Notes: generated from the letters alone by a model not told the origin. A stretch of DNA of 64,000 nucleotides from Snowella sp. (GCA_035285545.1 JAYKGY010000094.1:1-64000); one strand, 5' to 3'. Counted from the stretch's first letter, positions 2,725 through 23,043 are shown. Made by a program: numbers and translations.

Positions 2725-3695
2725 CTTTCAACCCACCCCGAACTGGGATGGTCATTGAAACTTTCGGTGGAAGGTGTCATTGCTTTCATTGGAGTTCCTT
2801 TCAACCCACCCCAAACTGGGATGGTCATTGAAACTACAGCCCGACCAGAGGGATCGCGCCTTTACTTCGCCTTTCAACCCACCCCAAACTGGGATGGTCA
2901 TTGAAACCTCGTATTCGGCGGGATGTTCCACTGTGATTTGCTCGCTTTCAACCCACCCCAAACTGGGATGGTCATTGAAACATTTCACCCCTAAAAAGGG
3001 TAATCCCCATTCGCCCCCTTTCAACCCACCCCAAACTGGGATGGTCATTGAAATTTTACTAACAAAGCAGGGAAATAAATGAGCTTAGGCTTTCAACCCA
3101 CCCCAAACTGGGATGGTCATTGAAACCTAAAGTCGAGCAGTTCCTCGTCGCTGAGTAGCTCTTTCAACCCACCCCAAACTGGGATGGTCATTGAAACCTG
3201 ATAGAATTCCCGCAACACAACTATTTAAGGCTTTCAACCCACCCCAAACTGGGATGGTCATTGAAACTACAAATTCTGTACCTTAATGGGTTAAATAAGC
3301 ATCTTTCAACCCACCCCAAACTGGGATGGTCATTGAAAGCAAGGGTGAATAGATGGCTTTAGTTGATGCTTTTCCTTTCAACCCACCCCAAACTGGGATG
3401 GTCATTGAAACCGTTAGGGATTAAAGCCAATCCTGCGGGACTTACTTTCAACCCACCCCAAACTGGGATGGTCATTGAAACTTCCAAATGCAAGTCAAGA
3501 AGGGATTCTACCGACCTTTCAACCCACCCCAAACTGGGATGGTCATTGAAACCTATGGACAACGGATGCGCTCATGGTTTGGACAACTTTCAACCCACCC
3601 CAAACTGGGATGGTCATTGAAACATTAGGATTACCGATAGATGAAATTCTTACTTTTGCTTTCAACCCACCCCAAACTGGGATGGTCATTGAAAC
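2725..3695 (-). CRISPR. Type V-K CRISPR array, 14 repeats of 37 bp (GTTTCAATGACCATCCCAGTTTGGGGTGGGTTGAAAG on -), 13 spacers of about 33-37 bp
   Basis: Repeat starts on + at 2725, 2798, 2871, 2945, 3018, 3090, 3161, 3231, 3303, 3375, 3445, 3516, 3587, 3659; GGGTTGAAAG 3' end is typical of V-K. Confidence 0.97.
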
Positions 3696-6101: not shown

Positions 6102-6168
6102 TTTATTGAACAAATCCGTTTAATACAAACATAAGTGTATTTTAACGAATTTTTATAAGATCGGCTAT

Positions 6169-6621
6169 ATGGAAAAAAGTTTTTTTAGCAGCAAAGAAGC
6201 CGCGACTTTAACGGAATGTACTTTACGCCAACTACAGTATTGGCGTGAAAATGAAGTTGTTGTACCGATAGTTGGAGCGACAGGAACAGGAAAGAGTATT
6301 TATTACTCTTATCGTGAATTAATCGAGTTGACATCGATGAGATATCTGTTGTTTGTCGGGTTGAGCTTTGATGTGGCACGGAATATTCTGCGATCGCTTA
6401 AGGACAAAGTTCCAGAATATGCAAATCCTGATATAAAAGCACGATTAATGTTGATTTTGGACACTGATTCGGGAATACTAGACTTAGTAAAATTTGACCG
6501 TGAACAGGCGATCGCGTTTCTAGATAACGGTCAGCCGATTATTCCATTGTGGTTGGATCTTATCCATCAAAAATTACAACAGCAATTAAGCAAGAAAGAT
6601 TCGATTATGTCGAATAAGTAG
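6169..6621 (+). CDS. cvkR: MerR-type CAST repressor, CvkR-like
   Basis: MerR HTH (FSSKEAATLTECTLRQLQYWRE); divergent from cas12k as in described V-K loci. Confidence 0.85.
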   Translation: MEKSFFSSKEAATLTECTLRQLQYWRENEVVVPIVGATGTGKSIYYSYRELIELTSMRYLLFVGLSFDVARNILRSLKDKVPEYANPDIKARLMLILDTDSGILDLVKFDREQAIAFLDNGQPIIPLWLDLIHQKLQQQLSKKDSIMSNK

Positions 6622-6644: not shown

Positions 6645-8870
6645 TTGGAGAATCAGAAACAGGTTGATAGCTTGAGTAACGAAACAGATGCCCGAATTAT
6701 TATTGATGACCAATTGCGTCAAGCAGGCTGGAATCCTGCCGATAAGACTCATGTTCTAACCGAAGTCAAAACAGACAGGGGTAAACCTGATTACGTTTTG
6801 CTGGATCAAAGAGGGCGATCGCTGGCCGTCATTGAGGCTAAAAAAGACGCGATTGATCCCTATACAGCCAAACAGCAAGCTCTTCCTTATGCCCAAAGTT
6901 TAAAAGCTCCTTTTATCTTTTTGACGAATGGAGAACTGATTTATTTTTGGGATTATCTCAATGATGATGCGCGGCTCATTCAATCTTTTTTTTCGCGGCG
7001 CGACCTAGAGCGTTTGGTAGAAATGCGATCGCAGCGTCAACCCTTAGCCACGATTGCTATTCCTGAATACTATCAACGAGAAGGGGAAACTCGCGAAGTC
7101 CGTCCTTACCAACGGGAAGCGATGCAGGCGATGGATCATGCGATTGAGTTGGGTAAACGTCGTTTCTTGATGGAACTACCGACAGGGACGGGAAAAACTG
7201 ACCTAATCTGTTTACAAATTAAACGGTTAATTGAAGCGGGAATTGCTGAAAAAATTCTGTTTTTAGTAGATCGGGAGCAATTGGCGAAGCAAGCCAGGGA
7301 AACTATTACCGATATTTTGGCCCAATATGATAGTTACTGGTTAAAACCTGGGATTGTCCGACAAGAGAAACAAATTACGATCACACTCTTGCAGACGATG
7401 ATCGGGCGTTATACCGAATTTACTAGTGGTTATTTTGACATTGTGATTGCGGATGAATGTCATCGTTCTATCTATGGAGCTTGGCAGACGGCCCTTACTT
7501 ACTTTGATGCGTTTCATTTAGGACTGACGGCAACTCCCGCAGGGTATATTGACCGCAATACCTTTAATTTTTACCAATGTCGTAACGAACAGCCCGATTT
7601 TTCCTATCCCATCCAAGAAGCCTTTAAAACAGGTTATTTAGTTCCTTATACCTTTGCTGAGGGAATTACTGAAATTTTAGCGGATGGGGCCGAGAAAGAT
7701 GGTGTGCAGTATGATCCAAAAGCATTTGAGCGCAAATGGACAAATGACGACACTAATCGCTTAATGATGGAGGAATTTGATCGGCTGGCTTGGGACAATT
7801 ATCTGGAATTAGCTCCCTATCAAAAGATTGGCCCTGGTAAATCTATTGTTTTTGCTATCACTAAAAGTCATGCGGCCCGATTAACTCGTTATTTGAACGA
7901 ATTGCATCCCGAATGTAAGGGCAAGTATGCCGAAGTGATCACCAGTGATGTTGCTGATGCTGATGACTTAATTCGTCGCTTCAAATACGAGGATTATCCC
8001 CAAGTCGCGGTCAGTGTGGATATGCTCAGTACGGGGTTTAATTGCCGCGAGGTTTTGCATTTGGTGATGGCTTGCCGCATTCGTAGCCCGATTTTATACC
8101 AACAAATTCGAGGACGAGGAACTAGAGTCGCTCCTCATATCGGTAAAAAGCGATTCATGATCTATGACTTTTTTAAGAATCATCAATATTTTAATGACAG
8201 TGATGAGGACTTTTTTTCTGGTGCGGGAACAGGCAGCAGTTCGGGCGGTTCAGGTGGTGGCCCCCGTCCTCCCAGAGAATTAATCGAATTGGGAATCGGC
8301 GATCGCTGGAAGGAAGCGGTGCAGTATGTGGAAATCGGTAATGATGGCGAGCAATTAGATAAACGGCGTTATGTCAGCATTTGGGAAGAAACGATCAATA
8401 ACCAAATAGCCGATGATCCTATTTTGCAAAAAATTCGGGCAGGAGAATTTTTGACCGAAGCAGAAGAAACCCAGTTAGAACAACAACTTAACCAACCCAA
8501 GTATTACTTTAACGAAGAGAATTTACGCCGAGCCTACAATAACCAACAAAGCAATCTGATTGATTTTATTAAGGCAGCCTTGAAACTGGTTAAAATTAAG
8601 AGCCTCGCAGAACAGAAGGAAGAAATCTTTCGAGCTTGGTTGATCGCCAAATCCTTTACGCCAGAACAAGCCCAATACTTATCTTTGCTCAAAAATCGAG
8701 GCATCGCTAAAGGCAAACTAAGTCTCGAAGATCTCTTTCAGCCTCCTTTGTCTGTTTTGAATGCGGCAGGCTTAGGGATAGAATTATTTGGAGAGCAAGG
8801 CTTACGGGATCTGTTTGAAGACTTAAATCGTTCCGTTTTTCTCAACGACACGACAGGAACCGATGGTTAA
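6645..8870 (+). CDS. hsdR: Type I restriction enzyme R subunit (EcoAI/EcoEI-like)
   Basis: PD...IEAKK nuclease motif, Walker A PTGTGKT, DECH, LTATP, QIRGRGTR. Confidence 0.9.
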   Translation: MENQKQVDSLSNETDARIIIDDQLRQAGWNPADKTHVLTEVKTDRGKPDYVLLDQRGRSLAVIEAKKDAIDPYTAKQQALPYAQSLKAPFIFLTNGELIYFWDYLNDDARLIQSFFSRRDLERLVEMRSQRQPLATIAIPEYYQREGETREVRPYQREAMQAMDHAIELGKRRFLMELPTGTGKTDLICLQIKRLIEAGIAEKILFLVDREQLAKQARETITDILAQYDSYWLKPGIVRQEKQITITLLQTMIGRYTEFTSGYFDIVIADECHRSIYGAWQTALTYFDAFHLGLTATPAGYIDRNTFNFYQCRNEQPDFSYPIQEAFKTGYLVPYTFAEGITEILADGAEKDGVQYDPKAFERKWTNDDTNRLMMEEFDRLAWDNYLELAPYQKIGPGKSIVFAITKSHAARLTRYLNELHPECKGKYAEVITSDVADADDLIRRFKYEDYPQVAVSVDMLSTGFNCREVLHLVMACRIRSPILYQQIRGRGTRVAPHIGKKRFMIYDFFKNHQYFNDSDEDFFSGAGTGSSSGGSGGGPRPPRELIELGIGDRWKEAVQYVEIGNDGEQLDKRRYVSIWEETINNQIADDPILQKIRAGEFLTEAEETQLEQQLNQPKYYFNEENLRRAYNNQQSNLIDFIKAALKLVKIKSLAEQKEEIFRAWLIAKSFTPEQAQYLSLLKNRGIAKGKLSLEDLFQPPLSVLNAAGLGIELFGEQGLRDLFEDLNRSVFLNDTTGTDG

Positions 8871-8888
8871 GGGGACACTGAAAATTTT

Positions 8889-10520
8889 ATGGATCAAGAT
8901 TTACGGCGCAAATTGGATGGTCTCACCGATACCTTATGGGCGGGAGGGGTCACAAATCCTGTCACCTATATCGAGCAGATTTCCTATCTAATTTATCTGA
9001 AATTGTTGGATGAGGAAGATGCTCAGCGTGAAATGCAGGCACGTTTGACAGGTAATAACCAAGTATTTCCCTTACAAGCAGAACGGTATCGTTGGTCAAA
9101 ATGGCGATTCAAAAGCGGGATTGATCTAAGAGATTTTCTGCGGGATGAGGTCTTTCCCTACATGGCCAATTCCCTCGTTAAGGATGCGCCCAAGGTAGCA
9201 GAATATTTTCGAGATGCGGTCTTGGAAATTTCCGACCCAAATGTTCTAAAAACAGTCATTGATGAGTTGGATTCGCTGGAACTCAGTAAGTTAGGACAGG
9301 ATATCAAAGGAGATATTTTTGAGTATTTACTAGCCCATTTGGGACAATCGGCGTTAAACGGTCAGTTTCGCACTCCGCGCCAAATTCGTTCGTTTATGGT
9401 GGAGATGGTTGATCCAGAGTTTGGGGAGAGTATTTGTGATCCTGCGATGGGAACAGGGGGCTTTTTAATTGATTCGTTAGATTATATTTTGGCGAAGTAT
9501 AGTGAAAATCCTGTTGAAATTCCTATTTATGGAGAGGATTGGTTGGATAAGCGGGGGCAAAGTCTGACGGAGGTAAAGAAGGAGATTCCCAATCTACAAA
9601 CCTATCGCAAAGGAATTGGAGACAAGTTACCTGAGTGGGCGTTATTAGAATCCTCTATTTATGGGTTTGATGTGTCCCGCCAGATGGTACGCATCGCGAT
9701 GATGAATTTGGTTCTCCATGAGGCGAAAAATGCCAAGATTAAACTGGCCAATGTTTTATCTGATCTGGGGGGATTGAGTGAAGATGATTTACGTCGCCGC
9801 TATAAGGTGATGCTGGCGAATCCTCCCTTTGCAGGGACATTACCGAAAGATTCAATTCGAGAGGATTTACCGACTAATTCCAAAAAAAGTGAGTTGTTGT
9901 TTCTCGCGGCAATTATGAAGTCTTTGGCCGACGGGGGACGTTGTGCGGTGGTCGTGCCAGAGGGGTTATTGTTTGGTTCAACGAATGCCCATACCGACTT
10001 AAGACAGACGTTATTAGATGAGTTTGACTTGTTGGCGGTGGTGTCATTGCCTGCGGGGGTATTTAAGCCCTATACAGGAGTTAAAACGGCGGTGTTAGTC
10101 TTTCGTAAGCCTATTGATCCTGAGTCTAATCGTCTGAAGCAGGTTTGGTTTTATGAAGTTAAAAATGATGGGTATGATCCTGACAAGATTACGGGGGGAG
10201 GACGGCCAGAAACACCAAATGCTAATGATATTCCTGCGTTGTTGAAGGCTTGGCATGACTATAAGGTTTCAGATTTTACGCAACCACCTGGGGTTGAGAC
10301 AGGGACGTTATTGGAAGCGGGAAGTGAGGAACCTCGTTGTTGGTGGGCGAGTTTGGAAACGGTGATTGCCAATGATTGCAATTTAGCGGCGGGACGCTAT
10401 AAACCCCAAGTCGCTGAAGTAGTTTCGGAAGATGATCCAACGGAGTTAATTAAGGAAGTATTAGGTATTGAGCAAAAGATTGCGTTAGGATTAGAGCAGT
10501 TATTGCAGGAAATTGGCTAG
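8889..10520 (+). CDS. hsdM: Type I R-M N6-adenine methyltransferase
   Basis: GQFRTP, DPAMGTGGF and NPPF motifs. Confidence 0.92.
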   Translation: MDQDLRRKLDGLTDTLWAGGVTNPVTYIEQISYLIYLKLLDEEDAQREMQARLTGNNQVFPLQAERYRWSKWRFKSGIDLRDFLRDEVFPYMANSLVKDAPKVAEYFRDAVLEISDPNVLKTVIDELDSLELSKLGQDIKGDIFEYLLAHLGQSALNGQFRTPRQIRSFMVEMVDPEFGESICDPAMGTGGFLIDSLDYILAKYSENPVEIPIYGEDWLDKRGQSLTEVKKEIPNLQTYRKGIGDKLPEWALLESSIYGFDVSRQMVRIAMMNLVLHEAKNAKIKLANVLSDLGGLSEDDLRRRYKVMLANPPFAGTLPKDSIREDLPTNSKKSELLFLAAIMKSLADGGRCAVVVPEGLLFGSTNAHTDLRQTLLDEFDLLAVVSLPAGVFKPYTGVKTAVLVFRKPIDPESNRLKQVWFYEVKNDGYDPDKITGGGRPETPNANDIPALLKAWHDYKVSDFTQPPGVETGTLLEAGSEEPRCWWASLETVIANDCNLAAGRYKPQVAEVVSEDDPTELIKEVLGIEQKIALGLEQLLQEIG

Positions 10521-10531
10521 GGAGATGAGAT

Positions 10532-11104
10532 ATGGAAACCTTAGTCTTAAGTTTGGATCGGGTTAATCTAACGGATGAGCAGTTCTTGCGTTTATGTGAG
10601 GCCAATGAGTTATTGCAGTTGGAGCGTAATGCACAAGGGGAGTTGTTGATTATGCCGCCCATTGGGGGAAAGAGTGGTAAACGGGAGGCGGATCTTATTA
10701 CGGCGGTGAGTCTCTGGAATCGGCAATCTGGTTTAGGGGAAGTGTTTAGTTCTTCAACAATTTTTCGATTACCGCGTGGGGGAAATCGATCGCCTGATGT
10801 GGCTTGGGTGACGCGAGAACGATGGGAGAAATTAACGGAAGAGGAGCAGGAACGGTTTCCACCTTTATGTCCTGATTTTGTGATTGAGTTAAGGTCACGC
10901 ACGGATGATTTGGGTTTATTGCAGGCCAAGATGCAGGAATATTTGGCCAGTGGTTTAAGGTTGGGTTGGTTAATTGATCCACAAAATCAAAGAGTGGAAA
11001 TTTATCGGCAAGATCAAACGGTTGAGGTGGTAGTATTACCGACGACGTTATCAGGAGAAGATGTTTTGTCTGGATTCGTAATGAATTTACCGTTATTTAG
11101 TTAG
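10532..11104 (+). CDS. Uma2 (DUF820) family putative endonuclease
   Basis: ERNAQGELLIMPP, SPDVAWV, CPDFVIELRS, GWLIDP motifs. Confidence 0.9.
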   Translation: METLVLSLDRVNLTDEQFLRLCEANELLQLERNAQGELLIMPPIGGKSGKREADLITAVSLWNRQSGLGEVFSSSTIFRLPRGGNRSPDVAWVTRERWEKLTEEEQERFPPLCPDFVIELRSRTDDLGLLQAKMQEYLASGLRLGWLIDPQNQRVEIYRQDQTVEVVVLPTTLSGEDVLSGFVMNLPLFS

Positions 11105-11129
11105 TTTAATTAAGGTGCAAGGAAATTTT

Positions 11130-12344
11130 ATGAAATGGCTAAAGGCTTCACTTTTAGATATATGTAATCCTAAACAGTGGCCAACTATTTCCAGCAAGGA
11201 ATTAACGTCTTCTGGTTATCCTGTTTATGGTGCAAATGGTCAAATAGGATATTATCATTCCTATAATCACGAAGAGCCAACAATTTTAGTAACTTGTAGA
11301 GGGGCAACTTGTGGAACACTTAACATTTCTCCTCCAAAAAGTTATACAACTGGTAATGCAATGGCCTTGGATGATATAAGGTCTGATTTAGTAGATTTCA
11401 AGTTTTTATATTATTCTTTATTGTCAAGAGGTTTAAAAGATACAATTACGGGAGCAGCTCAACCACAAATAACTCGAAAAAATCTCAGTATTGTTAACTT
11501 ATCAATTCCTTCACTATCTGAACAAAAGCAAATTGTTAAAATTTTAGATCGCGCTGATGAACTTCGCAAACAGAGGGCCGAAGCTGATGCCTTATCAGAG
11601 CGCATTTTACCCGCCTTATTTATTAAAATGTTCGGCGATCCTGCTACTAATCCAATGGGTTGGGATGTTATAAAACTTGGTGATTTATCTGAGGTTCAAG
11701 GTGGCCTTCAGTTAACCCCAAAAAGAAAAGATAATCCTTTGACTTTACCTTATTTAAGAGTGGCGAATGTTTATCGTAATAAATTAAAATTAGATGAAAT
11801 CAAAGAAATTAACGTCACAAAAGAAGAAGTTAAACGAATAGCTTTACAAAAGGATGATATTTTAATTGTAGAAGGACATGGTAATAGAGATGAAATTGGA
11901 CGTTCTGCTATTTGGGATAATTCAATAGTTTCTTGCTTGCATCAAAATCATCTTATTCGAGTTAGAGTCAATAAATCTCAAATAAATCCAATATATCTGA
12001 ATACTTTCATCAATTCAGCAGGTGGGAGAGAGCAGTTATTCAAGGTAGGAAAAACGACATCTGGATTGAATACAATTAGTGTGTCGAACGTAAGAAAAAT
12101 AAATATTTTAGTTCCTCCATTAGAGAGCCAAATAAATTTTGCTCAAAAAGTTGATGATTTTCAGCGTATAAGCGAACAACGAGAAATAGCTAACACAAAA
12201 ATAAACGAGTTATTTGACAATCTTCTTTATCGTGCCTTTTCAGGAGACTTAACCGCACAATGGAGAGAAGCCCACATGACTGAACTCTTACAGGAAATGG
12301 AATACCAAACCAAAGCCCTCAATCTTCAGCCTACCCTCTTTTAA
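11130..12344 (+). CDS. hsdS: Type I R-M specificity subunit
   Basis: Two variable TRDs with conserved regions PSLSEQKQIV, FIKMFGDP, PPLESQINF, RAFSGDLT. Confidence 0.9.
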   Translation: MKWLKASLLDICNPKQWPTISSKELTSSGYPVYGANGQIGYYHSYNHEEPTILVTCRGATCGTLNISPPKSYTTGNAMALDDIRSDLVDFKFLYYSLLSRGLKDTITGAAQPQITRKNLSIVNLSIPSLSEQKQIVKILDRADELRKQRAEADALSERILPALFIKMFGDPATNPMGWDVIKLGDLSEVQGGLQLTPKRKDNPLTLPYLRVANVYRNKLKLDEIKEINVTKEEVKRIALQKDDILIVEGHGNRDEIGRSAIWDNSIVSCLHQNHLIRVRVNKSQINPIYLNTFINSAGGREQLFKVGKTTSGLNTISVSNVRKINILVPPLESQINFAQKVDDFQRISEQREIANTKINELFDNLLYRAFSGDLTAQWREAHMTELLQEMEYQTKALNLQPTLF

Positions 12345-12375: not shown

Positions 12376-12744
12376 ATGTTAACTACAGATCAGGCTCCCA
12401 TCTCTCTTAATAATCATATTATTCAGCAAATTACTGAAAAATATACCTTGTTTGAACCCGACTGCATTCTCACCTATCTAAGTCAACATAAAAACCTAAC
12501 CTTTGCCTTACTAGAAGCTGAAAAACAAATCCGAAAAATTTTCCTCCACGAGAAACTAATCTTAAAAATTGTTTATGATCCAGAAATTCCTAATTGGGAA
12601 AAACTGTTTATTATTATTAGCACCCAACTTGATGCCGATACAGCCTTTGATAAACTCAAACAACTCGATCAAAATTGGTGGTTAGATGCCTCAGATTTAG
12701 TTAATAATGACCTAGAAATTCATATAGACTTTGATGAAATTTAA
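12376..12744 (+). CDS. Hypothetical protein, probable partner (antitoxin-like) of the downstream HEPN protein
   Basis: 122-aa ORF overlapping the HEPN gene start. Confidence 0.55.
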   Translation: MLTTDQAPISLNNHIIQQITEKYTLFEPDCILTYLSQHKNLTFALLEAEKQIRKIFLHEKLILKIVYDPEIPNWEKLFIIISTQLDADTAFDKLKQLDQNWWLDASDLVNNDLEIHIDFDEI

Positions 12745-13132
12745 TTGGGAAGAGTATTTTACCCTAGCTCAGGATCTCATAAAAACAGAAACAAATGAAG
12801 CTAAACAACGAGCATCTATTAGTCGAGCTTACTATGCCGCTTTTTGTGTTGCCAGAAATTACTTAAGAGATTATCATAACGAAAATCCTACACGGGGTGA
12901 AAACGAACATAAATTTGTCGCGGATAAATTCCAATCTCTTGCTTATATCGATCCACGAATGCGGGAAATCGGTAATGACTTGAGCCGTTTACGTAGAGAA
13001 AGGAATCAAGTAGATTATAATGATCTCGTGTTAAACTTACCTAACAGAACAAAATTATCCTTAAAATTTGCCCGAAATATCCTTAATAAAATTACAGAAT
13101 TAATCCAAGAAATCGAATCAAAAAAAACATAG
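12734..13132 (+). CDS. HEPN-domain protein
   Basis: ISRAYYAAF and LRRERNQVDY motifs of the UPF0332-like HEPN family. Confidence 0.75.
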   Translation: MKFNWEEYFTLAQDLIKTETNEAKQRASISRAYYAAFCVARNYLRDYHNENPTRGENEHKFVADKFQSLAYIDPRMREIGNDLSRLRRERNQVDYNDLVLNLPNRTKLSLKFARNILNKITELIQEIESKKT

Positions 13133-13214
13133 TCTTTTTCCGATAACAACTCGACTGGAATTAAACTTTAAAGAACAAAATAAATAAGGTTTTACATTCT
13201 GATTTCCCATGCAA

Positions 13215-16200
13215 TTAAAAATCATCAAATTTCTCTTTGCAAATATCATTGTAGAGACAAACCAGACAAGTTTTTAAAGAAGGCTTTGCTGTGTAATTCC
13301 TGTTTTCTATATCCTTAACTAAAACCTTTGCTTCTTGGTTAATTGCTCGTAGATCAAACTTTGAAAAAGACATTAAATCATCATGTCGTAGATAAGCAAG
13401 GTAAGCTTGGGATTTTTTCGCAGCCTTTGCATAGGCCCACACTTGAAAACGATGCTCTTGGGGCTTCACTTCTTGATCGGTTTTTATATCCAGAATGAAA
13501 TCATCACCGATTAAGTCAGCAGAACCGTTAAATACAATCGAGCCTAACTTAAAAGACAAAAACTGTTCCCAAACTCCATTCTGGACAGATGAATAGGTTG
13601 GCGATCGCCGAAATGTATCCGCGAGATCTAAAGCTTCTTGCACCTTATCCAGCGACAAACTGGAATTATATTTCTGAAGCTCGGTTACAGTTTCAATCCC
13701 TTGCGCCAAAGCCCTATGAGTCAGAATGCCGACTTCGCGCCCATAGTTGCCTGTGCCTGTTACTTCTCCTGGATATCCTTCAATGTATTTGTAATAAAAT
13801 CCCTGCGGACAACGAGCATAATCGGTTAAGGCTGTAATCGGTAATTCCAGACCCCCAGAACGAATCGGATTAAGTAGAGCATAGGGGGGAACATCGGGCA
13901 GAGGGGGATCAACCAGAGTGGAGTTTTTGAGATTTTCGGGATCAAAAAGAACTTCTTGTGGGATAAATGGCCCCTGTAAGCCAGGCTGTAAAACATTCCA
14001 TAGATGTAATTCATTTTTTCCCTGAGTAGTCGTCAAAATTAGGCGATCGCGGGCACGAGTAGCTGCTACATAGAGAAGCCGTTTCATTTCGTCTTTTTCT
14101 CGTTGCTTTTGTCGTTGCTCTAACAGCAAATAAAGGGCTGATTTTTGTTTTTCTCCTTCATCATCCTCTGGTTTCAGGGCAACCCCTAACGTCGGATCAA
14201 AACGAATTAGGGGATGATCACCTGACGACTTACCGCTTAAATTCGGGATAATCACAACTGACCATTCCAACCCTTTGGCCGAGTGGATCGTCATCAAGGT
14301 AACCGCATTGACTGCTTCTAGAGGAGGACGCTCAATCTCGATTTGGCTTTTGACAATTCGCTTGAGGCGACGAACCACCATAAACACCTCGGCGGTTCCT
14401 GTCTCCAATTTTCGTACAATATCCAAAAAGCCTCGCCAATCGGCCAACCGACGCTGATGATTAGGGAGATTGGCAATCACGGCAGTATAACCCGTCAATT
14501 GATCGGCTAATTGCAATAAGCGGCTGGGAGGATCAATTGATTGGCTATTTCGTAATTCTTTTAGAACTTTGATCGCATGGGTAAATTCGGGCTGTTCCGC
14601 TTGTTGAAGGATTTGCCACCAGTTAGTATTCTCCTCTGTAGAAGATTGACGGAGATTTAATAACAGGCGATCGCTTAGGGCAAAAAAAGGACTTTTAAGG
14701 ACAGCAACTAGGGAAATATTATCTCTAGAATCCGCTAAAAATTGGAGTAGGGCAAAAGCATCCTTCGCTTCACGGGTATCTAATAAATTGCCACCCCCTG
14801 CCTGAAGAATGGGAATGGGTTGCTCATCAACAACACGCTCAGCGATCGCCTGTCCATAATCATTTAAAGGCTTCCAGGTACGAGAAAGAATCGCAATATC
14901 CCCAAACTGGATCGGTCGGTGTTCCTTCGTCTTTTTATCCCAAATTGGTAGCCTTTCCTGAAGCATGGTTTGGACAAGATCGGCGATATGCTGGGCTTCT
15001 GCTTGACGACACTGATCCACACTGGGTTTATAGGCAACTTGAGCATCAGCCGCCAAAACAAAAATTTCTACATGGGGAGCAGGATGGGGAGCGTCTAAAC
15101 GATCAGCATTTAGGTCTTGATGCAAATCCTCTAAAATCGGTGCAAAAAGTTGATTGATGTTTTGAATGAGAGGATTATGAGTACGAAAGCTAGTATTAAG
15201 AGGTAACGTATTTTTTAGGCGATCGCGCCAGGTCTTAAATACTTCAATATCTGCCCGTCGAAAGCCATAAATAGATTGCTTCTCATCTCCGACGAGGGTT
15301 AAAGTCGCATTTTGAGTTAAGATTTCCAGTAATTTTCCTTGAGTTGGATTCGTGTCTTGAAACTCGTCAATTAAAAAGGCTTGCAAGCGTCGATGATAAT
15401 AATCTTGAACATAAGGCTTTTCTAATGCCTGTAGAGCGTGGACTTCCAAGTCGTTAAAATCTAAGACTCGCTGTTTACGTTTGGCTTCAGTTAAATGAGA
15501 GCGAACGAAAGCAAAGGCTTCTTGAAGGATAGGAATCATCTCTTCGGCTTGAAAATCTATTGCTCCAACTTGAATGGTGAGTAACGCAATATCAGAAAAA
15601 TCCTTAGTAAAATCTCGCCAATCAATTAGGATTCTCCTCACCTGCTTCAAAATTTCTTCGCTTTGCCAATTTTTCTTGCTACCAACATTGCCAACTTTAA
15701 AATCAAGCCAAGTTTGCAACGTTGCCTGAAAGTGATTTCCTTGAACATCGTGGGCGTGATGCTCGATTTGCTCAATTAACTCCAAAGCGTTTTGTCGAAC
15801 AAGTTCCAATCTATCCCCTGATTGACCCGCATTGTGACGGACAATTTCTTTCGCTTCCAACCAAAAATCGTGGTTGATTAAAGCTTCAATAATTTTCTCC
15901 TGCGTTTTTTTGAGAATCGGCAACCAATCCTGTTGACTTCGTGTTAAGGCTTTTTCGGCACTGAGAGGGTCTTGTAAAAATGCTTCGATTGCTGATCGCA
16001 TTAAAGAATAGGGAACTTGGGCATAAAGGTTGTCGGGTAATTGCTCTAACGCGATCGTCACTTGTTCCGCTTGCCATAACTTTCCTTCCCACTCGTCCAA
16101 TGGCGTAAAATCCGCAGGGACTCCTGCCGCTTCAGGATGTTCTCGACAAATACGAGCGGCCAGGGAATGAAACGTACAAATAGGAGCCGTTTCCAATTCT

Positions 16201-16442
16201 GCCAGCCAATCCAATCGGTCTTGGGCTTGAGCGGTAACAGTTTGACGAATGCGAGAACGTAACTCAGTGGCCGCTTTATCCGTAAAGGTCATCGCCACAA
16301 CTTCCAAAGGAGAAAGTCCCGCTTTCAGGTGAAATAAATACCGCTCTGCCAACATATAAGTTTTGCCCGTACCAGCCCCCGCCGTGATTGTCACGCTTCC
16401 CTCTGCTGTAGCGGCTTTTTCTTGTTGTTCTGTTAAACCCAT
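13215..16442 (-). CDS. AddA/AdnB-like UvrD (SF1A) helicase with C-terminal PD-(D/E)XK nuclease
   Basis: AGAGTGKT, DEFQD, GDEKQSIYGFRRA, MTIHSAKGLE, YVAATRARD; C-terminal CP...ADL...LDIKT...QVWAY...CLVCLYNDIC; start placed at ATG 16442. Confidence 0.88.
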   Translation of the reverse strand: MGLTEQQEKAATAEGSVTITAGAGTGKTYMLAERYLFHLKAGLSPLEVVAMTFTDKAATELRSRIRQTVTAQAQDRLDWLAELETAPICTFHSLAARICREHPEAAGVPADFTPLDEWEGKLWQAEQVTIALEQLPDNLYAQVPYSLMRSAIEAFLQDPLSAEKALTRSQQDWLPILKKTQEKIIEALINHDFWLEAKEIVRHNAGQSGDRLELVRQNALELIEQIEHHAHDVQGNHFQATLQTWLDFKVGNVGSKKNWQSEEILKQVRRILIDWRDFTKDFSDIALLTIQVGAIDFQAEEMIPILQEAFAFVRSHLTEAKRKQRVLDFNDLEVHALQALEKPYVQDYYHRRLQAFLIDEFQDTNPTQGKLLEILTQNATLTLVGDEKQSIYGFRRADIEVFKTWRDRLKNTLPLNTSFRTHNPLIQNINQLFAPILEDLHQDLNADRLDAPHPAPHVEIFVLAADAQVAYKPSVDQCRQAEAQHIADLVQTMLQERLPIWDKKTKEHRPIQFGDIAILSRTWKPLNDYGQAIAERVVDEQPIPILQAGGGNLLDTREAKDAFALLQFLADSRDNISLVAVLKSPFFALSDRLLLNLRQSSTEENTNWWQILQQAEQPEFTHAIKVLKELRNSQSIDPPSRLLQLADQLTGYTAVIANLPNHQRRLADWRGFLDIVRKLETGTAEVFMVVRRLKRIVKSQIEIERPPLEAVNAVTLMTIHSAKGLEWSVVIIPNLSGKSSGDHPLIRFDPTLGVALKPEDDEGEKQKSALYLLLEQRQKQREKDEMKRLLYVAATRARDRLILTTTQGKNELHLWNVLQPGLQGPFIPQEVLFDPENLKNSTLVDPPLPDVPPYALLNPIRSGGLELPITALTDYARCPQGFYYKYIEGYPGEVTGTGNYGREVGILTHRALAQGIETVTELQKYNSSLSLDKVQEALDLADTFRRSPTYSSVQNGVWEQFLSFKLGSIVFNGSADLIGDDFILDIKTDQEVKPQEHRFQVWAYAKAAKKSQAYLAYLRHDDLMSFSKFDLRAINQEAKVLVKDIENRNYTAKPSLKTCLVCLYNDICKEKFDDF

Positions 16443-16444
16443 GA

Positions 16445-19135
16445 CTAGACTCCTTTGCGTTGTAAGCGATCGCCTTTGCGACAGACGGGATCGTGTGGAC
16501 AATATTTGCAGGCTTCGCCATCTATATCAGGCGCGACAGGATAGGAGCCTTGAAAATGGGTTTTGAGGCGGTCAACGATTTCACTGAGTTCATCTTGTGA
16601 AATAACTATTTTGGGAGAAATATCCTTGCCTTTACTGAGAGAGTAATAGAGCGTTTTTTCTACCGTTTTATTGGGATGTAAATGAGGTGCAGCAACAGCC
16701 TGGTAGATCGGTAATTGCAGATCAATCTTGGCTTTGCGATTCGCATCTTGAATGCCTAATGGTTCCTTAGATCGAGTTTTATAGTCAATTAACACTAATC
16801 CGCTCTCACGATGATCAAGGCGATCTACTCGTCCCCGTATCTTTAATCCTTGCCATTCCCCTTGAAATTCGGCTTCTAAAGCTAATACTTTGGCTTCTTC
16901 AGGTAGAAAATCAGATTTTTGGATGGTTCTTTGTAAAGTTTTGATATGCTCATAACGTTGACTATTCCAAGCAGGGAACTTCGGTAAATTAATTTCTGTT
17001 TCTGCCTGAACAAACCAATTCTGTAAATTTTCTTTGTCAGCAATGTCAATGCTTGGATCTTTGTTTAAGTCTTTGAGAGCCAATTCTAAAACTTTATGGT
17101 AAAGTGTTCCCTTCAAACTGGGACTGAGTTCTTCTTCTTGTTCAGTTAACTCATCCAGTTTTAGAAGCTTATTCGCAAACCATTTAAACGGGCATTGACC
17201 TAATTGCGTCAGTTGGGAAGCACTAAACCAATGCTCACTATAGTCGAAAGGAATGCCCACAACGCCATCGTATTCATTAAAAGGTTCCGAACTTTCTCGG
17301 TGTTTTTCTATCCTAAAAGCGGCGATCGCCTGTTGTAATAAGGCATCATCCCACTTGTTTTCTCGTCTCAAATAAATCTGTCGGGCAACTTCCTTACTCG
17401 GAATAATCTCAAGGGGAACAGCACTCGGAATAAGCCCTAATCGGTGGAAATAAGAGGATGGTTCTGCCTGAGAGTAGAAGCCATTTTCACGACTCACTGT
17501 AGAGTAGGAAAAGGTGAACTGTTTATTGGGAGTGTGCAATAGAGAGTAAAAAGCAAATGCCTCCCGTCGTGCTAACTCTGCCGCACTATCTAAGTTAATT
17601 CCTTGGTATTGGAGCTTTTTCCGTTCATAAAAATCTAAAACAGGATCATTGACAATTGGTTTGGGTAAATTTCCTTCTCGCCCGTCTATTACAAAAACAT
17701 AATCATATTTTGCCCCCGCAATGGAGCAAGGATTGTGTAGTTCAATGCCCTCTCGTCCAGGTGCGGCGATAGTAGTTAGTAGTGAGAGACTGGTCAGAAT
17801 TTCTTCGCGAAAGGCTTCCCACGTTAAATTTTCATCTTTAAGTTGAGATAACGTCCTGAGTCCGTCAATCAAATTTTTATAGGCAAGGCTTTCCTTCGCC
17901 CAGGTTTTTGCCTGTTCTCGTAACTCAAAGAGGTCGAAAATCATCTCTAACCGTTTCAACCAATCTTGTCTTGATGTACTGAGCGGTAACTGTAAAGGGC
18001 TTAGATCGATGGTAGTTTGGGTTTGAATTAGCGATCGCCATAACTCAAAATTTGTTGGCCTTTCTTCTTGCATCTTTGCCCAAAGATTGCCCCCTATTTT
18101 TCGGCTGAACGGTTGTTGAAGAAATCGGGTGGTTAGTTCAAAAGGCCATTGCTGCTCTATTACTTCTAGTAACAATTGCACCCAGGCCCCTACTCTTGTT
18201 TCGGCGATTGGAATTTTGTACGGTAAGCGCAGACTAATACCATATTCCCAAGCAATATCTACCAAAAGATTTCCCCATTCGGTATCGTTAACGGCAACGA
18301 TCACAATTTCTCTGCTGAAAATACCCTGATGTAGAAGTTTTTTAATCTGAGCCAGAACTCCCCTTGCCTCTGCTTCTGGATGAGAATAGACATGAGCCAC
18401 CATCGAGCCATTATTAGGAAGAGACGGAGAATTTTCTTGAAGAAATTTTGCTGATAACAAGGTTCCAGGAACGGAGGAATATGATGACTTCAATGGTCTA
18501 ATCGTCCAGCCTTGCTTCTCGAATTGCTCTAAAACTCTTTGTTGGGAAGTAAATAAATAATGATCTTCGTATAACGAGTAAAAAACACTGCCATTGTCAC
18601 AAACTTCTTCAATAAAAGCTAATTCGTCGGCACAAGGATCAAAATAGCCATAAATAATGAGCGATCGCCGTTCGGGATTAACCTCTATTGCTCGCCAAAA
18701 AATTTCGCTATTGTCTATCCAATTGTCTTGGTGTAAAAGCTTTTGGTATTCTTGGGTCACTCGAATGAGTTGACTAGCACGTTCTGAAAGTTCTTCAGGG
18801 TCAGGTAAGGAAGGCTGGGATTGTAAAAGGGCTTGAATACTTGGCCGCCAAGTTCTCGCCGTTCCCTCTACATCATGGGGGCCGACAATTCTCTTAATGG
18901 CTTCTCGTAAAAGTTGTTGAGCGACTAAAGGGGGAGCAATCTGAATCTTTTGATCTAGAAGAATTTCTTGAGCAAGATGTTGTAACGAATATTCCCTGAC
19001 TCCTAGACTCCTTGCTGCATTGCGATTAGGTGTAACGACCCGCAAGTTGGGATCATCAGTAATCTCTTCTGCCAGAATATGGGCTTGAGAACTTAGAACA
19101 TGGGCTTGAGAACTTGAGTAAACTAAACGGATCAT
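16445..19135 (-). CDS. AddB-like protein: degenerate helicase scaffold plus PD-(D/E)XK nuclease with four Cys
   Basis: SASQLTQLGQCPFKWF, GTLYH, GRVDRLD, LIDYKT, QLPIY, CKYCPHDPVC; no Walker A in the N-terminal part. Confidence 0.85.
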   Translation of the reverse strand: MIRLVYSSSQAHVLSSQAHILAEEITDDPNLRVVTPNRNAARSLGVREYSLQHLAQEILLDQKIQIAPPLVAQQLLREAIKRIVGPHDVEGTARTWRPSIQALLQSQPSLPDPEELSERASQLIRVTQEYQKLLHQDNWIDNSEIFWRAIEVNPERRSLIIYGYFDPCADELAFIEEVCDNGSVFYSLYEDHYLFTSQQRVLEQFEKQGWTIRPLKSSYSSVPGTLLSAKFLQENSPSLPNNGSMVAHVYSHPEAEARGVLAQIKKLLHQGIFSREIVIVAVNDTEWGNLLVDIAWEYGISLRLPYKIPIAETRVGAWVQLLLEVIEQQWPFELTTRFLQQPFSRKIGGNLWAKMQEERPTNFELWRSLIQTQTTIDLSPLQLPLSTSRQDWLKRLEMIFDLFELREQAKTWAKESLAYKNLIDGLRTLSQLKDENLTWEAFREEILTSLSLLTTIAAPGREGIELHNPCSIAGAKYDYVFVIDGREGNLPKPIVNDPVLDFYERKKLQYQGINLDSAAELARREAFAFYSLLHTPNKQFTFSYSTVSRENGFYSQAEPSSYFHRLGLIPSAVPLEIIPSKEVARQIYLRRENKWDDALLQQAIAAFRIEKHRESSEPFNEYDGVVGIPFDYSEHWFSASQLTQLGQCPFKWFANKLLKLDELTEQEEELSPSLKGTLYHKVLELALKDLNKDPSIDIADKENLQNWFVQAETEINLPKFPAWNSQRYEHIKTLQRTIQKSDFLPEEAKVLALEAEFQGEWQGLKIRGRVDRLDHRESGLVLIDYKTRSKEPLGIQDANRKAKIDLQLPIYQAVAAPHLHPNKTVEKTLYYSLSKGKDISPKIVISQDELSEIVDRLKTHFQGSYPVAPDIDGEACKYCPHDPVCRKGDRLQRKGV

Positions 19136-19145
19136 TTATGCGCTT

Positions 19146-19670
19146 TTAATTGAACGAGGGAGACTGAAAATTTTTCTGATATTTTGCCATGTCCTGAAAA
19201 GGCAAAAAACACCGATGGCACCAACCATCAACCCATAACGAAGGAATCTTAAATCTTGCCCCACAGTTGGGACATTCCGATAACAACGTTAATTTGTGGC
19301 GATCGCAACCCTGCGTTTCCTTAAATTGCCATTCAATCTTGTGGCATGGCGACTCTACATAACAAGCCGCACACAATCGAATTGGCTCCATTTTCATCCC
19401 TATTCCAGCAGGAGGGCACATCTGCTCTAACCTATCGGTATCGACCCCTACAAGCTCAGCCAATGCCTCTAGTTGCTGCCGAGACGGAGGGGGATTAAAT
19501 CGAAATTTTTCCCATCGCGCGATCGCGCCCCCCAGTTTGGTTAACTGGCCCATCATGCTCACTGTTAATTCATTTTCCCTGCGAAATCGTCCTAAAAAAT
19601 GGCTAATGCTTTCCCCCGATAATGGCTCAACCAAAAACCACCAAGCTTGAATCTCTTGAATTTCCATCAT
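19146..19670 (-). CDS. tniQ: TniQ
   Basis: EPLSGESISHFLGRFRREN, RWEKFRFNP, Zn-finger Cys clusters CAAC/CPNC/CHRC. Confidence 0.95.
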   Translation of the reverse strand: MMEIQEIQAWWFLVEPLSGESISHFLGRFRRENELTVSMMGQLTKLGGAIARWEKFRFNPPPSRQQLEALAELVGVDTDRLEQMCPPAGIGMKMEPIRLCAACYVESPCHKIEWQFKETQGCDRHKLTLLSECPNCGARFKIPSLWVDGWCHRCFLPFQDMAKYQKNFQSPSFN

Positions 19671-20503
19671 TTATACTCTTCTGCAACTGCCTCAAGGGTT
19701 TCCAAATCTACCTTATGTAACCCCTTTTTCAAAGCTTGGATCGCGGCCTCTCGTAAAATCATATCGAGCAAACCAATATAGCCACCTGTTGCCGTTCTCA
19801 AAATGTCCAACATCTCCTTACTGGCTAAATTTGAAGCACCTGGCAACATAAATACTTTACGCTCCCAAATATCGACAGTTTGAACAAAATCATTACCAGA
19901 TAACTTACCAAAACGATGACAAGCCCGAAAACGGTTGTAGACCTGCTCATCTCTTTTAATCACTGTGTCTAAACGATCAGTTCCCACCAACACAACTGCA
20001 ATATTCAACTTATCAAAAAAATCTCTTACTTCAGCGAAGGTTTTTGCTTTTAACCGATCAGCTTCGTCAATAATCAACATTTCAACCCCACAGCGTTGCA
20101 GAACGTTAAACGCCCTTTGACGGAATTCTGTAACCGTTCCCTTTGTCATTTGATACTTTAGATGATCGATGATTGTCCAAAATAAATCTTTAGCCCCACA
20201 TTCTTGAGGAATTTGAATATAAACAACAGGGACAATGGGAGGCTTTCCTAATTCTTGAATGGGCTTGTGTCTTAATCGATAAGCATTGCACGCAATCGTT
20301 TTCCCAGTACGAGATTCTCCTACTACACGGCAAGATTGCCTCGCTTGACGTTTTCCTTCCAGCCAATTATGCAATGCTTCCACATGAGAAAGAGTAACAA
20401 TCATCTTTCGATTTAATCGTTGAATTTCATCCTGTAATTTATCGGGAGTCAATTGGAGCTGTCCCAGTTTTTCGGCGACAGCTTGTGCGTCTTGAATTGT
20501 CAT
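19667..20503 (-). CDS. tnsC: TnsC AAA+ ATPase
   Basis: Walker A GESRTGKT, Walker B LIIDEAD, DEQVYNRF. Confidence 0.95.
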   Translation of the reverse strand: MTIQDAQAVAEKLGQLQLTPDKLQDEIQRLNRKMIVTLSHVEALHNWLEGKRQARQSCRVVGESRTGKTIACNAYRLRHKPIQELGKPPIVPVVYIQIPQECGAKDLFWTIIDHLKYQMTKGTVTEFRQRAFNVLQRCGVEMLIIDEADRLKAKTFAEVRDFFDKLNIAVVLVGTDRLDTVIKRDEQVYNRFRACHRFGKLSGNDFVQTVDIWERKVFMLPGASNLASKEMLDILRTATGGYIGLLDMILREAAIQALKKGLHKVDLETLEAVAEEYK

Positions 20504-20506
20504 AAT

Positions 20507-22216
20507 TTAAAATCCGTAATCTTCTTGTAATGCTTCATAGTCGAAAACTTGAACTTTAGATAACTCAGACGAAGAAGAAGAGGGTCGTAAATCGTCCTCT
20601 TCGCGTTCTCCTACATTTGTTTTAATTGGTTGTGACGAAAGCGTTTGTTGTTCCTCCTTATGTCGTTCCTTTTTAGATTTTTTCGCCTTCGGAAACGTTT
20701 GACGATCTTTAATTTCCGACAAAATAGACCGATTGTTGACAGATTTTCCCGCTTCTCGTACCCGTTTACTACTCGCTTTTGCTTCATCTAAAGACATTTG
20801 TTCCGCCTCCAAATCCAACGCATAGGCACGAGACAAAAAAACTTCCTTATTGCTTTCACGTTGATAAATCAGAAGCATAGTAATGTCTCTAGGATCAAAA
20901 CGTAAAATAACGGTCTCTCCCGCGTAACCTGCGAGATTTTCCCCCCGATACATCAAATTCTCAAACTGGATATATCCCCCACGTTGGATTCTACGTTGGG
21001 TCTGTTTCATTAAACAAATATCTAATTCTCGTTCAGAAATGACATCAGGAGCAACAATTAAACCTGCATCCCAACGCTGAAAACGAGTTTGATCGCCCAT
21101 TCTGGCATCGATTCGTTGATTATAGTTGTCCACAATATAACGTACCAGCTTTTTCTCTAACTCTCTCAGTGTTAAGCAGGCTTCTTTCTCGGCCTCTTCT
21201 GGGCGATCCTGAACATTTCCTGCCGTATAACCTGGGAGAGTGGAAAAAAATTCCGTGTTAAAGGTATTAAAAGGACGTTCGACGATTCCTCCCTCGCTGG
21301 GACGGTCTCGTAAATGACAAACAAATCCTAACTGAACAGAAATTTGTTGAAGATGATTAGAACGAAAATCTTTACCTCCATCAGTGTAAAAATGCTCTGG
21401 CTTACCGTAAGTTGCCCATTCTTCATGTAATTGGTATTCACTACTGTAATTCTTCGGTAACATGGCATGACGCAATGCCAACGCAACCACTGTAGAACTT
21501 GGAGCATCGAAACCTAGATGAATCCCTATAATGCAACGGGAATAGGAGTCAATCACCGTTGTTAGCCAAGGACGAGCCAGTATTTCTCCATATTTATCAA
21601 CCAATAATATATCGGCACGAGTATGGTCACACTGCCAAACGTGATTGCTATATTCAACCGATAAATCAAGTACTGCGCGAGTCTTGACAGATAGTTGTGT
21701 CCCTTTCCATCCTGGGCTTCTGATACTTTTCTTTTTTTCTTGTTTTTCAATTAAAGGGTCTAGGACTCGATAAACGGTCATGTGGGATGGAGGCTCAATT
21801 CCCGATGCTAATGCAATCGCCTTTATTTTGAAAAAGACTTGTTTAGGAGTGATTCTACGGCTCCCTTTATTTCCTTCTTCATAGGTTTTGATAATGAGAT
21901 TTTGCAATTTTTCATCAATTCTAAAAGTCCCTTTATCTATCCGTTCAGATTGAATTAGTCCTTCTAACCCCTTCTCTTCCCATTTTTTAACTAACCGTTG
22001 CACTGTTCGCTTGGATACGTTAAGCTTTTCAGCCGCCTCTAACAACCGTTGCCCATAAGTTCGGCGATCGCAGGGTTCTAAAAGCTTTTGAATTATTTCC
22101 AGCTTAAGTTTTGCATCATCGGGCAATTCAGAGACAATGACGCTCTCTTCACTAAACTCATCATTAGAATGATGAATAGATGCTTGCTGAGCAGTAGTTA
22201 ATTCCTGTCCTCTCAT
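20507..22216 (-). CDS. tnsB: TnsB Mu-like DDE transposase
   Basis: VWQCDHT, YTDGGKDF, GGIVERPF catalytic triad; N-terminal HTH. Confidence 0.95.
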   Translation of the reverse strand: MRGQELTTAQQASIHHSNDEFSEESVIVSELPDDAKLKLEIIQKLLEPCDRRTYGQRLLEAAEKLNVSKRTVQRLVKKWEEKGLEGLIQSERIDKGTFRIDEKLQNLIIKTYEEGNKGSRRITPKQVFFKIKAIALASGIEPPSHMTVYRVLDPLIEKQEKKKSIRSPGWKGTQLSVKTRAVLDLSVEYSNHVWQCDHTRADILLVDKYGEILARPWLTTVIDSYSRCIIGIHLGFDAPSSTVVALALRHAMLPKNYSSEYQLHEEWATYGKPEHFYTDGGKDFRSNHLQQISVQLGFVCHLRDRPSEGGIVERPFNTFNTEFFSTLPGYTAGNVQDRPEEAEKEACLTLRELEKKLVRYIVDNYNQRIDARMGDQTRFQRWDAGLIVAPDVISERELDICLMKQTQRRIQRGGYIQFENLMYRGENLAGYAGETVILRFDPRDITMLLIYQRESNKEVFLSRAYALDLEAEQMSLDEAKASSKRVREAGKSVNNRSILSEIKDRQTFPKAKKSKKERHKEEQQTLSSQPIKTNVGEREEDDLRPSSSSSELSKVQVFDYEALQEDYGF

Positions 22217-22276
22217 AAAACAAGCCTGTTTAATAAAACAATTATGTATCTATAACGTTAACACTTTTTTATTTAA

Positions 22277-22514
22277 GTGACAACTAATTTGTGAAGACAG
22301 GCAAATATCAAAAAAAAGTGCCATTCTAGAAAATGACACTTAATTTGTTAAAGGTCTGGAAAATGACATCTAATTTGTTACTGAACTCAGTAGTCATTTA
22401 ATTGTTAGAAATGCAGAAAAATAACCCTCTAATGCTTGCTGTACAAAGGTTATAAGGATTAGCAGCTTCGGCGACACGAACTTGTTACAATGACAAATAA
22501 TTAGTTACTGTACA
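22277..22514 (-). repeat. CAST right end with about five TnsB binding sites
   Basis: GACA-N-AA(T/C)TTGT-type repeats near 22279, 22334, 22364, 22473, 22491; terminal TGTACA at 22509-22514. Confidence 0.9.
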
Positions 22515-22563
22515 GAATTGTTCCGAGGCAATTGATCTGGCAACTTTTGCCGTTGGGGATGAA

Positions 22564-23043
22564 TTAATGATCAGGCTCTAGATCGGGTATTTCGGCTTCA
22601 ATTAAATAGCTTGCCCATTGTGTTTCCCCATTTTGACCGTTTTTAACTTCCCGTTCTAATAAACGCCAGGTTTTTCCTTCAGCCTGTCGTTGCAAATAAA
22701 TTTCAAAGGGGTTTTTCTTCTGGGTAACGGTTTGACGGGGTAGGGTAAGCGTTACATGATAGGTTCCCTGAAGATGGTAGGCGGGTAACTCACTAATCAC
22801 AATGGGTTCAAGGGTGTTGACTTGAATTTGCTTGAGGTCGATCTTGGGTAACGTTGCTTTCAATTGTTGGCTCAGACGGGTTTGAGTATGCTCTAGTTGC
22901 AGCGCGATCGCTTTTTGGACAATATCGCCATCGGGGGCAAATTCCAACGGAGCCGTTTTAGCTTGGCAGGCTGTCAAGACCACCACTAACAGCAAAGTGA
23001 CACAAAGACGAAAACAATAAGCCATCATTATCGACAAGAGCAA
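22564..23043 (-). CDS. Hypothetical lipoprotein
   Basis: Hydrophobic N-terminus ending in lipobox-like LTAC; true start probably at a downstream ATG. Confidence 0.65.
   Translation of the reverse strand: MLLSIMMAYCFRLCVTLLLVVVLTACQAKTAPLEFAPDGDIVQKAIALQLEHTQTRLSQQLKATLPKIDLKQIQVNTLEPIVISELPAYHLQGTYHVTLTLPRQTVTQKKNPFEIYLQRQAEGKTWRLLEREVKNGQNGETQWASYLIEAEIPDLEPDH

Follow-up and report, generated by a model that had tools for sequence, protein, structure and literature searches.

The stretch of DNA considered here (64,000 nucleotides of Snowella sp., JAYKGY010000094.1:1-64000, hereafter the window) contains a type V-K CRISPR-associated transposon (CAST) whose transposition genes are followed closely, on the same strand, by two genes for what looks like an AddAB-type helicase-nuclease. 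The five genes lie on the minus strand in the order tnsB, tnsC, tniQ, addB-like and addA-like (Table 1), and their junctions, as read from the sequence, consist of a 3-bp gap between tnsB and tnsC, an ATGA overlap between tnsC and tniQ, a 10-bp gap (AAGCGCATAA) between tniQ and addB, and a 2-bp gap between addB and addA, with an AGGAG motif 8 nt 5' of the addA ATG at 16442. The gene run described by the first-pass annotation is thus borne out, with respect to both the positions of the open reading frames (ORFs) and their Pfam and NCBIfam assignments, and so are its junctions. Alignment of the N-termini of 11 homologues backs the addB start at 19135, and a listed TTG codon at 16502 gives addA an upstream extension inside addB. 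Close to its 5' end, addB contains a 21-bp tandem duplication (19074-19115), which results in a 7-residue repeat (SSQAHVL/SSQAHIL) that the homologues do not have. As for the continuity of the locus, the entire stretch lies within one contig in run X1, a possible source of the window's DNA. Run X2, from another study, contains short contigs that are 90-99% alike over addAB and over tns genes, none of the contigs listed being shown to bridge the tniQ-addB junction, and the coverage in run X3 is mainly of addAB; stretches that lack coverage carry no weight either way.

The element in which the run sits is approximately 21.5 kb long and lies behind a tRNA-Thr gene. Its assignment as a V-K CAST, also made by the first-pass annotation, stands firm on the Cas12k score, the CRISPR array, the tRNA-Thr gene and the TnsB-site-like repeats, of which there are four at each end, with TGTACAGTAAC at both transposon tips. 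In agreement with this type, no TnsA-type domain was detected with Pfam among the 19 ORFs scanned at 4200-29924. A 5-bp target-site duplication is not visible at the tips, which are flanked by AATGT (995-999) and GAATT (22515-22519); these differing flanks may reflect a rearrangement after insertion and leave the call made at the level of the genes unaffected. The published layout of V-K CASTs places variable cargo between cas12k and tniQ, with restriction-modification (RM) systems as frequent cargo, and has CvkR sites at the promoters of cas12k and tnsB (PMC9938897; this and the other PMC papers cited below for background are used in their accessible parts). The general organization resembles that of the V-K elements ShCAST and AnCAST, with which it shares Cas12k, a divergent MerR/CvkR-type regulator, an array beside a tRNA gene, the tnsB-tnsC-tniQ order, TnsB-site repeats clustered at both ends, and the placement of defence cargo in the interval from tniQ to cas12k. 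In the present element this interval contains, besides addB and addA, a HEPN gene accompanied by a small ORF, as well as a type I RM operon that includes a Uma2 gene. The addAB pair hence occupies a cargo position, lying between both transposon ends and between tniQ and cas12k, beside the type I RM and HEPN cargo. TniQ itself shares 50-75% identity with TniQ of other V-K CASTs, and this similarity stops in the last few codons, as would be expected if variable cargo starts there. What sets the element apart from other V-K CASTs is that its first cargo genes are on the same strand and only 10 bp from tniQ, an arrangement found in none of 37 comparators, and that an IS701-family insertion is present near the array. 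The element represents a new architectural variant of a type V-K CAST, with an unusual joining of tniQ to addB.

Table 1. Features of the V-K CAST and its tRNA gene in the window (positions counted from the first letter of the window)
Feature	Coordinates	Strand	Evidence
tRNA-Thr(CGT), attachment-site gene, 45 bp from the CRISPR-proximal end	883-954	+	ARAGORN; Rfam tRNA, 73.9 bits
CRISPR/tRNA-proximal transposon end	1000-1079	+	terminal TGTACAGTAACA; four closely spaced TnsB-site-like repeats, direct repeats 1006-1079
IS701-family transposase, secondary insertion in the CAST	1278-2588	+	NCBIfam NF041680, 526.9 bits (cut-off 440)
CRISPR array, 15 repeats	2725-3695		Rfam CRISPR-DR15, 15 matches above gathering score
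cas12k	4200-6113	-	NCBIfam NF038191 V_Cas12k, 935.8 bits (cut-off 150), full length 1-629
MerR-type regulator divergent from cas12k, CvkR position	6169-6621	+	Pfam MerR_1; position matches CvkR architecture (PMC9938897, accessible parts)
Cargo type I RM: hsdR, hsdM, Uma2 gene, hsdS	6645-12344	+	Pfam ResIII/EcoEI_R_C, N6_Mtase/HsdM_N, Uma2, Methylase_S
Cargo small ORF and HEPN-domain ORF	12376-13132	+	Pfam HEPN for 12731-13132; 12376-12744 without family match
addA-like, 1075 aa	13215-16442	-	Pfam UvrD-helicase, UvrD_C, PDDEXK_1; best NCBIfam addA_Gpos
addB-like, 896 aa	16445-19135	-	Pfam PDDEXK_1; weak NCBIfam addB_Gpos and addB_alphas matches
tniQ, 174 aa	19146-19670	-	Pfam TniQ
tnsC	19667-20503	-	Pfam TniB, AAA_22
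tnsB	20507-22216	-	Pfam rve, Mu-transpos_C, HTH domains
tnsB-proximal transposon end	22275-22514	-	terminal TGTACAGTAAC from 22514; four dispersed TnsB-site-like repeats

When considered at the sequence level, the pair looks like an intact yet divergent AddAB. The AddA-like protein has the motifs GAGTGKT (Walker A, residues 22-28), DEFQD (motif II, 359), DIK (985) and QxxxY (1000), and finds its best match in the PDB in Bacillus subtilis AddA (3u44_A, 1.5e-37), along with distant matches to 6ppu, 6ppr and related AdnAB chains. In AddB, no Walker A pattern is present, and both the nuclease residues D771, D784-Y-K786, Q807 and Y811 and four cysteines that form a putative iron staple (C648, C876, C879 and C885) are invariant in 12 sequences. 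A single-sequence phmmer search of the PDB returned no match to AddB, and the best match of the AddB family profile was B. subtilis AddB (3u44_B, 6.1e-13). Around its nuclease domain, AddA carries C878 plus a CxxCx5C cluster (1059-1068), and thus an iron-staple pattern is seen in both subunits. In B. subtilis, the iron staple is known from AddB only. The NCBIfam equivalog scores are far under their cut-offs for both addA (addA_Gpos 255.6 versus 707.65; addA_alphas 201.9 versus 860.75) and addB (addB_Gpos 57.4 versus 903.7; addB_alphas 46.4 versus 486.5), and for this reason the pair is classed as a divergent enzyme of the AddAB type, outside the equivalogs that make up the characterised subfamilies.

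Compared with known helicase-nucleases, the pair shares its two subunits and its addB-addA gene order with B. subtilis AddAB (PDB 3U44/3U4Q/4CEH) and with alphaproteobacterial AddAB. The predicted division of labour also appears to be the same, with an active superfamily 1 (SF1) motor and a RecB-type nuclease in AddA, and a helicase-like domain and a four-cysteine nuclease in AddB. It differs from these enzymes in its strong divergence, in the missing Walker A of AddB, in the CxxCx5C cluster of AddA, in being borne by a transposon and in the patchy occurrence of its homologues. Mycobacterial AdnAB is likewise a heterodimer of two UvrD-like/RecB-nuclease subunits. Both motors are active in AdnAB, in contrast to the present pair, where AddB lacks Walker A. 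The likeness to RecBCD lies in AddA, which resembles RecB (208 bits with TIGR00609, under the cut-off), and in the activity on DNA ends, which is expected to be the same. RecBCD has an established interplay with restriction and phage defence. No match to RecC (TIGR01450) and none to RecB over its cut-off was found in the window's own genome (G000; 95.38% complete, 151 contigs), RecD not having been searched for.

The same genome contains one AddB match and one AddA-like match, and both are the pair in the window. Relatives of AddB occur in 8 of 40 related genomes (34-53% identity), a scan of genome contigs with AddB alone gave one relative (52% identity), and in a sample of 401 genomes of the phylum AddB was found in 32, the window's own included, absence here meaning not found in the genomes searched. 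AddA and AddB co-occur across genomes, and their adjacency is not constant. The nearest relative, in G178, adjoins leuS and shares 57% (AddB) and 67% (AddA) identity with the window pair; a copy from the same genus (G004) shares 53% and 61%, respectively, and the flank of its addAB site is conserved in the genome of the window, where it contains dnaN and no addAB. Judging from these sequence comparisons, the AddAB-type pair is apparently accessory and mobile in cyanobacteria, most of which are published as having neither RecBCD nor AddAB (PMC12094033, PMC5101192).

The first-pass annotation had raised the possibility that the pair belongs to an undescribed CAST variant that carries its own end-processing machine. 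Relatives of TnsC (E<=1e-40) were found at 47 places in other genomes, 40 of which, from 35 genomes, were used, the remaining 7 being fragments or duplicate copies. The sequence available 3' of tniQ was approximately 8.5 kb for most of these 40 loci and less for 7 that end at contig ends. Within this reach, AddA or AddB was found at none of the 40 other tnsB-tnsC-tniQ loci. A tniQ ORF could be called in 38 of them, 37 of which had a next ORF of at least 100 aa; in 16 cases this next gene was on the same strand, at a distance of 79-409 bp, and in the other 21 it was on the opposite one, and the 10-bp tniQ-addB junction is therefore unique in this set. Similarly, Cas12k scored over its cut-off in 50 genomes, and an AddB match is present in only three of these (G000, G020 and G341), leaving 47 of the 49 other Cas12k genomes with none. 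Among the 401 genomes of the phylum, AddB and Cas12k lie on one contig only in that of the window. In G341 they are on separate large contigs, and in G020 they are on short contigs (C74, C81 and C122) whose ends share no overlap; a linkage between AddAB and a CAST is possible there. The nearest homologues, with 57-67% identity, are located at ordinary chromosomal sites unlinked to CASTs. Together with the absence of the junction from all 40 loci and the single contig carrying both AddB and Cas12k, this speaks against the pair as a part of such a variant.

A looser proximity between AddAB and CASTs does recur, which is one point in favour of the variant raised by the first-pass annotation. A metagenome scan with the AddB alignment yielded 80 loci, two of which contain CAST parts. 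One of them (L091) is a clear V-K CAST end, where a tRNA and TnsB-site repeats are accompanied by two CRISPR repeats and by cas12k; beyond these follow GmrSD and then, on the strand opposite to cas12k, AddB, a long AddA and BrxC/DUF6079. The order in the other (L138) is BrxB-BrxC and PDC-M28 genes, AddB-AddA, GmrSD, a TnsB core-only ORF and, where the contig ends, a MerR gene. The TnsB-like ORF of L138 (17584-18279, 231 aa), which lies beside the MerR gene, matches TnsB in its catalytic core alone (residues 194-402). In a FastTree phylogeny of 68 AddB proteins, in which the window, L091, L138 and the unproven G020 were labelled as CAST-linked, the labelled proteins fall into three separate well-supported clades and require three changes, and 322 of 500 shuffles score as low, indicating no clustering of the label. 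The sister of the window AddB is the leuS-linked copy of G178 (support 100). Since the looser linkage recurs in differing orientations and in three AddB clades, it looks like repeated cargo capture and not like co-evolution. These results agree better with the other possibility named by the first-pass annotation, in which cargo for defence or repair captured the tns promoter, than with a dedicated end-processing machine.

The surroundings of the AddAB homologues are diverse, and in many cases they are defence islands or mobile settings. Genes of the bacteriophage exclusion (BREX) type flank AddB-AddA at 12 of 88 AddB loci, which correspond to approximately eight lineages after near-identical copies are merged. 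These loci (L025, L033, L094, L091, L105, L087, L090, L097, L138, L093, L124 and L132) show several arrangements, such as BrxC/DUF6079 after a C-terminally extended AddA, BrxB-BrxC divergent upstream, or DUF499, BrxL or BrxC_BrxD close by. In this respect there is a likeness to BREX and BREX-related defence islands, with homologous AddB-AddA directly beside BrxB/BrxC, BrxC(DUF6079), DUF499, BrxL or BrxC_BrxD. The window itself gave no match in tblastn searches that used two queries for BrxC and one for BrxB, its cargo being the type I RM system and HEPN. AddAB-type enzymes and BREX-like systems may thus be associated in cyanobacteria in a way not described before. None of the BREX-associated helicase-nucleases listed in the accessible parts of PMC12839542 is of the AddAB type, and literature searches on AddAB with Cas12k or cargo, and on BREX with AddAB, returned no account of AddAB being carried as CAST- or BREX-linked cargo. 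With regard to the CAST literature, AddA, AddB and RecB are not mentioned in the main text and readable supplements of PMC9938897 or in the main text and one supplement of PMC8649781, and the main text of PMC12416283 does not mention cargo.

Other neighbours of AddB are prokaryotic Argonaute (pAgo), GmrSD, type I RM (L125; L088 has a fragment of hsdR), AbiEii, PemK, resolvases and an integrase. At L033 (5051-8419; genome G341) and L094, a pAgo of 1123 aa is encoded directly upstream of AddB; it gives a full-length match to the PADLOC pAgo model and contains Pfam Schlafen/AlbA_2 and PIWI. This neighbour is notable because published work has AddAB and RecBCD supplying guides to long-A pAgos (PMC12094033). 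In L085, L116 and L144, AddB-AddA is accompanied each time by a DUF6361 protein and by a large ORF without annotation. In addition, a clade of solo addB genes (L107-L117, L129, L131, L140 and similar) has conserved Rce1-like, AbrB-like, Usp and DUF456 neighbours, with addA encoded elsewhere in the genome where this was checked, which suggests a vertically inherited chromosomal branch beside a mobile operon branch.

Some further features of the element deserve mention. The IS701-family transposase gene is placed between the tRNA-proximal end and the CRISPR array, and because this is the region where V-K CASTs keep the anchor spacer, the insertion could affect homing. Within the type I RM operon of the cargo, the Uma2-family gene (10532-11104) separates hsdM from hsdS, and at least 10 further Uma2 paralogues with 48-65% identity are present in the same genome (C67, C75, C19, C57, C70, C124, C150, C128, C8 and C56). 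The small ORF and the HEPN ORF may form an MNT-HEPN pair, to judge from their position.

Whether the five genes could be read as one unit depends on the signals within the run. A pattern scan of 12900-22700 found 15 promoter-like sites versus 17.9 in shuffles, and thus no excess, the best site 5' of tnsB being at 22351-22323. Upstream of addB, the run contains a single terminator-like site, a hairpin in tniQ (19232-19211), which was rejected as a terminator on account of its weak fold (z-score -1.5) and its location in conserved coding sequence. The single transcript from the tnsB promoter that the first-pass annotation thought likely is plausible given the spacing.

On balance, addB-addA is probably a mobile AddAB-type helicase-nuclease module that was captured as the first cargo genes of this element, rather than a conserved component of the CAST machinery. 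We infer that the two proteins form an active complex, that they are co-transcribed with the tns genes and that the host benefits from them. By analogy with the family, AddA, with its active SF1 motor and RecB-type nuclease, would associate with AddB, with its inactive helicase-like domain and iron-staple nuclease, and the complex would load on free double-stranded DNA ends, unwind them with ATP and degrade both strands. In this way the module would supply an "exonuclease V" activity to its host, one that would be missing otherwise because no other AddAB or RecBCD was found there. Such an activity could destroy linear foreign DNA, including fragments cut by the co-carried type I restriction system, and could also resect the host's own breaks for repair by RecA. 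The capture junction is at the extreme 3' end of tniQ, which makes read-through from the tnsB promoter most likely; the addA gene would be translationally coupled to addB, and the pair would share the control of the tns genes. The joining itself may have arisen by chance or by selection, with read-through from the tns promoter as its probable consequence.

A number of observations weigh against this interpretation. Operon-type joining to tniQ is not normally seen for ordinary cargo, with no same-strand gene within 78 bp of tniQ at the 37 other CAST loci. The placement of AddAB by V-K CAST parts at L091 and L138 (2 of 80 loci), and possibly in G020, seems to exceed what random placement would give. 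As many homologues, approximately, lie in housekeeping settings (beside leuS, RmuC or two-component genes, or with the Rce1/AbrB/Usp set at solo addB), which means that defence is not the strict hallmark of the family. Moreover, both proteins are well under the NCBIfam equivalog cut-offs.

Among the other explanations, the one that survives best is that the pair serves purely in the repair of host double-strand breaks, or offsets self-damage by the type I RM system, and thereby makes the cargo cheaper to carry without any role against foreign DNA. AddAB is the textbook enzyme of break resection. Several homologues are found in housekeeping settings, one of them beside RmuC, and type I RM genes adjoin the pair in the window as they do AddB in L125, with the hsdR fragment of L088 as a further case. 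Nevertheless, the recurrent BREX, pAgo and GmrSD neighbours point to conflict settings, and most relatives live without any AddAB, according to both the present survey and PMC12094033, which renders a pure repair role rather unlikely. The two roles are also hard to separate, since one enzyme activity serves both repair and the degradation of foreign DNA.

A dedicated role in transposition is less probable still, and can be regarded as quite improbable. V-K CASTs have no TnsA and a Mu-like TnsB, and therefore donor flanks stay attached or cointegrates form; AddAB would process such strand-transfer or cointegrate products, or repair breaks in the donor or target, and thereby raise the yield of finished insertions, its placement in the tns operon giving co-expression with the transposase. 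The operon-like joining to tniQ, unique against the 37 comparators, would fit such a role, as would the host in which no other AddAB or RecBCD was found and the AddAB genes next to V-K CAST parts at L091, L138 and possibly G020. Host-factor data point in the same direction, in that recA and recD mutations strongly alter how efficiently a type I-F CAST works in Escherichia coli and RecBCD is cited as having a role in mending simple insertions of Mu (PMC12757027); that CAST, however, contains TnsA and is not of type V-K. The surveys described above argue against the idea more directly: AddAB is near none of the 40 other tnsB-tnsC-tniQ loci, and 47 of the 49 other Cas12k genomes have no AddB match, so that V-K CASTs evidently manage without it. 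Furthermore, the pair of L091 is on the strand opposite to cas12k, beside BrxC and GmrSD, that of L138 lies between BREX-type genes and GmrSD, and the CAST-linked AddB proteins belong to three unrelated clades, with chromosomal genes as the nearest homologues. It is likewise quite improbable that some V-K CASTs recruit an AddAB end-processing enzyme of their own in hosts without RecBCD or AddAB, with the recurrence reflecting selection and the present element being a case in which the enzyme became wired into the tns operon. If a transposition role did hold true, the pair would be the first element-encoded substitute for a host factor in a CAST without TnsA, and would matter for the cointegrate problem that genome-editing tools based on V-K CASTs face.

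Finally, the idea that the degradation products of the pair feed CRISPR adaptation as prespacers, or a pAgo elsewhere in the genome as guides, draws on the production of guides for long-A pAgos by AddAB and RecBCD (PMC12094033) and on the pAgo directly beside AddB in G341 (L033/L094), and is highly improbable, as no cas1, cas2 or pAgo is present among the window ORFs at 4200-29924 and a pAgo query had no match in the window, the rest of the genome not having been searched.

If addB-addA is captured cargo, a complete AddAB-type exonuclease would be a mobile commodity of defence islands in cyanobacteria. Given that most cyanobacteria are published as having neither RecBCD nor AddAB, a CRISPR-guided transposon could thus bring in this activity along with a restriction system. 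This would bear on how restriction, BREX-like and Argonaute systems operate in hosts that have no end-degrading enzyme of their own, for which addB-addA would be a compact pair open to testing.

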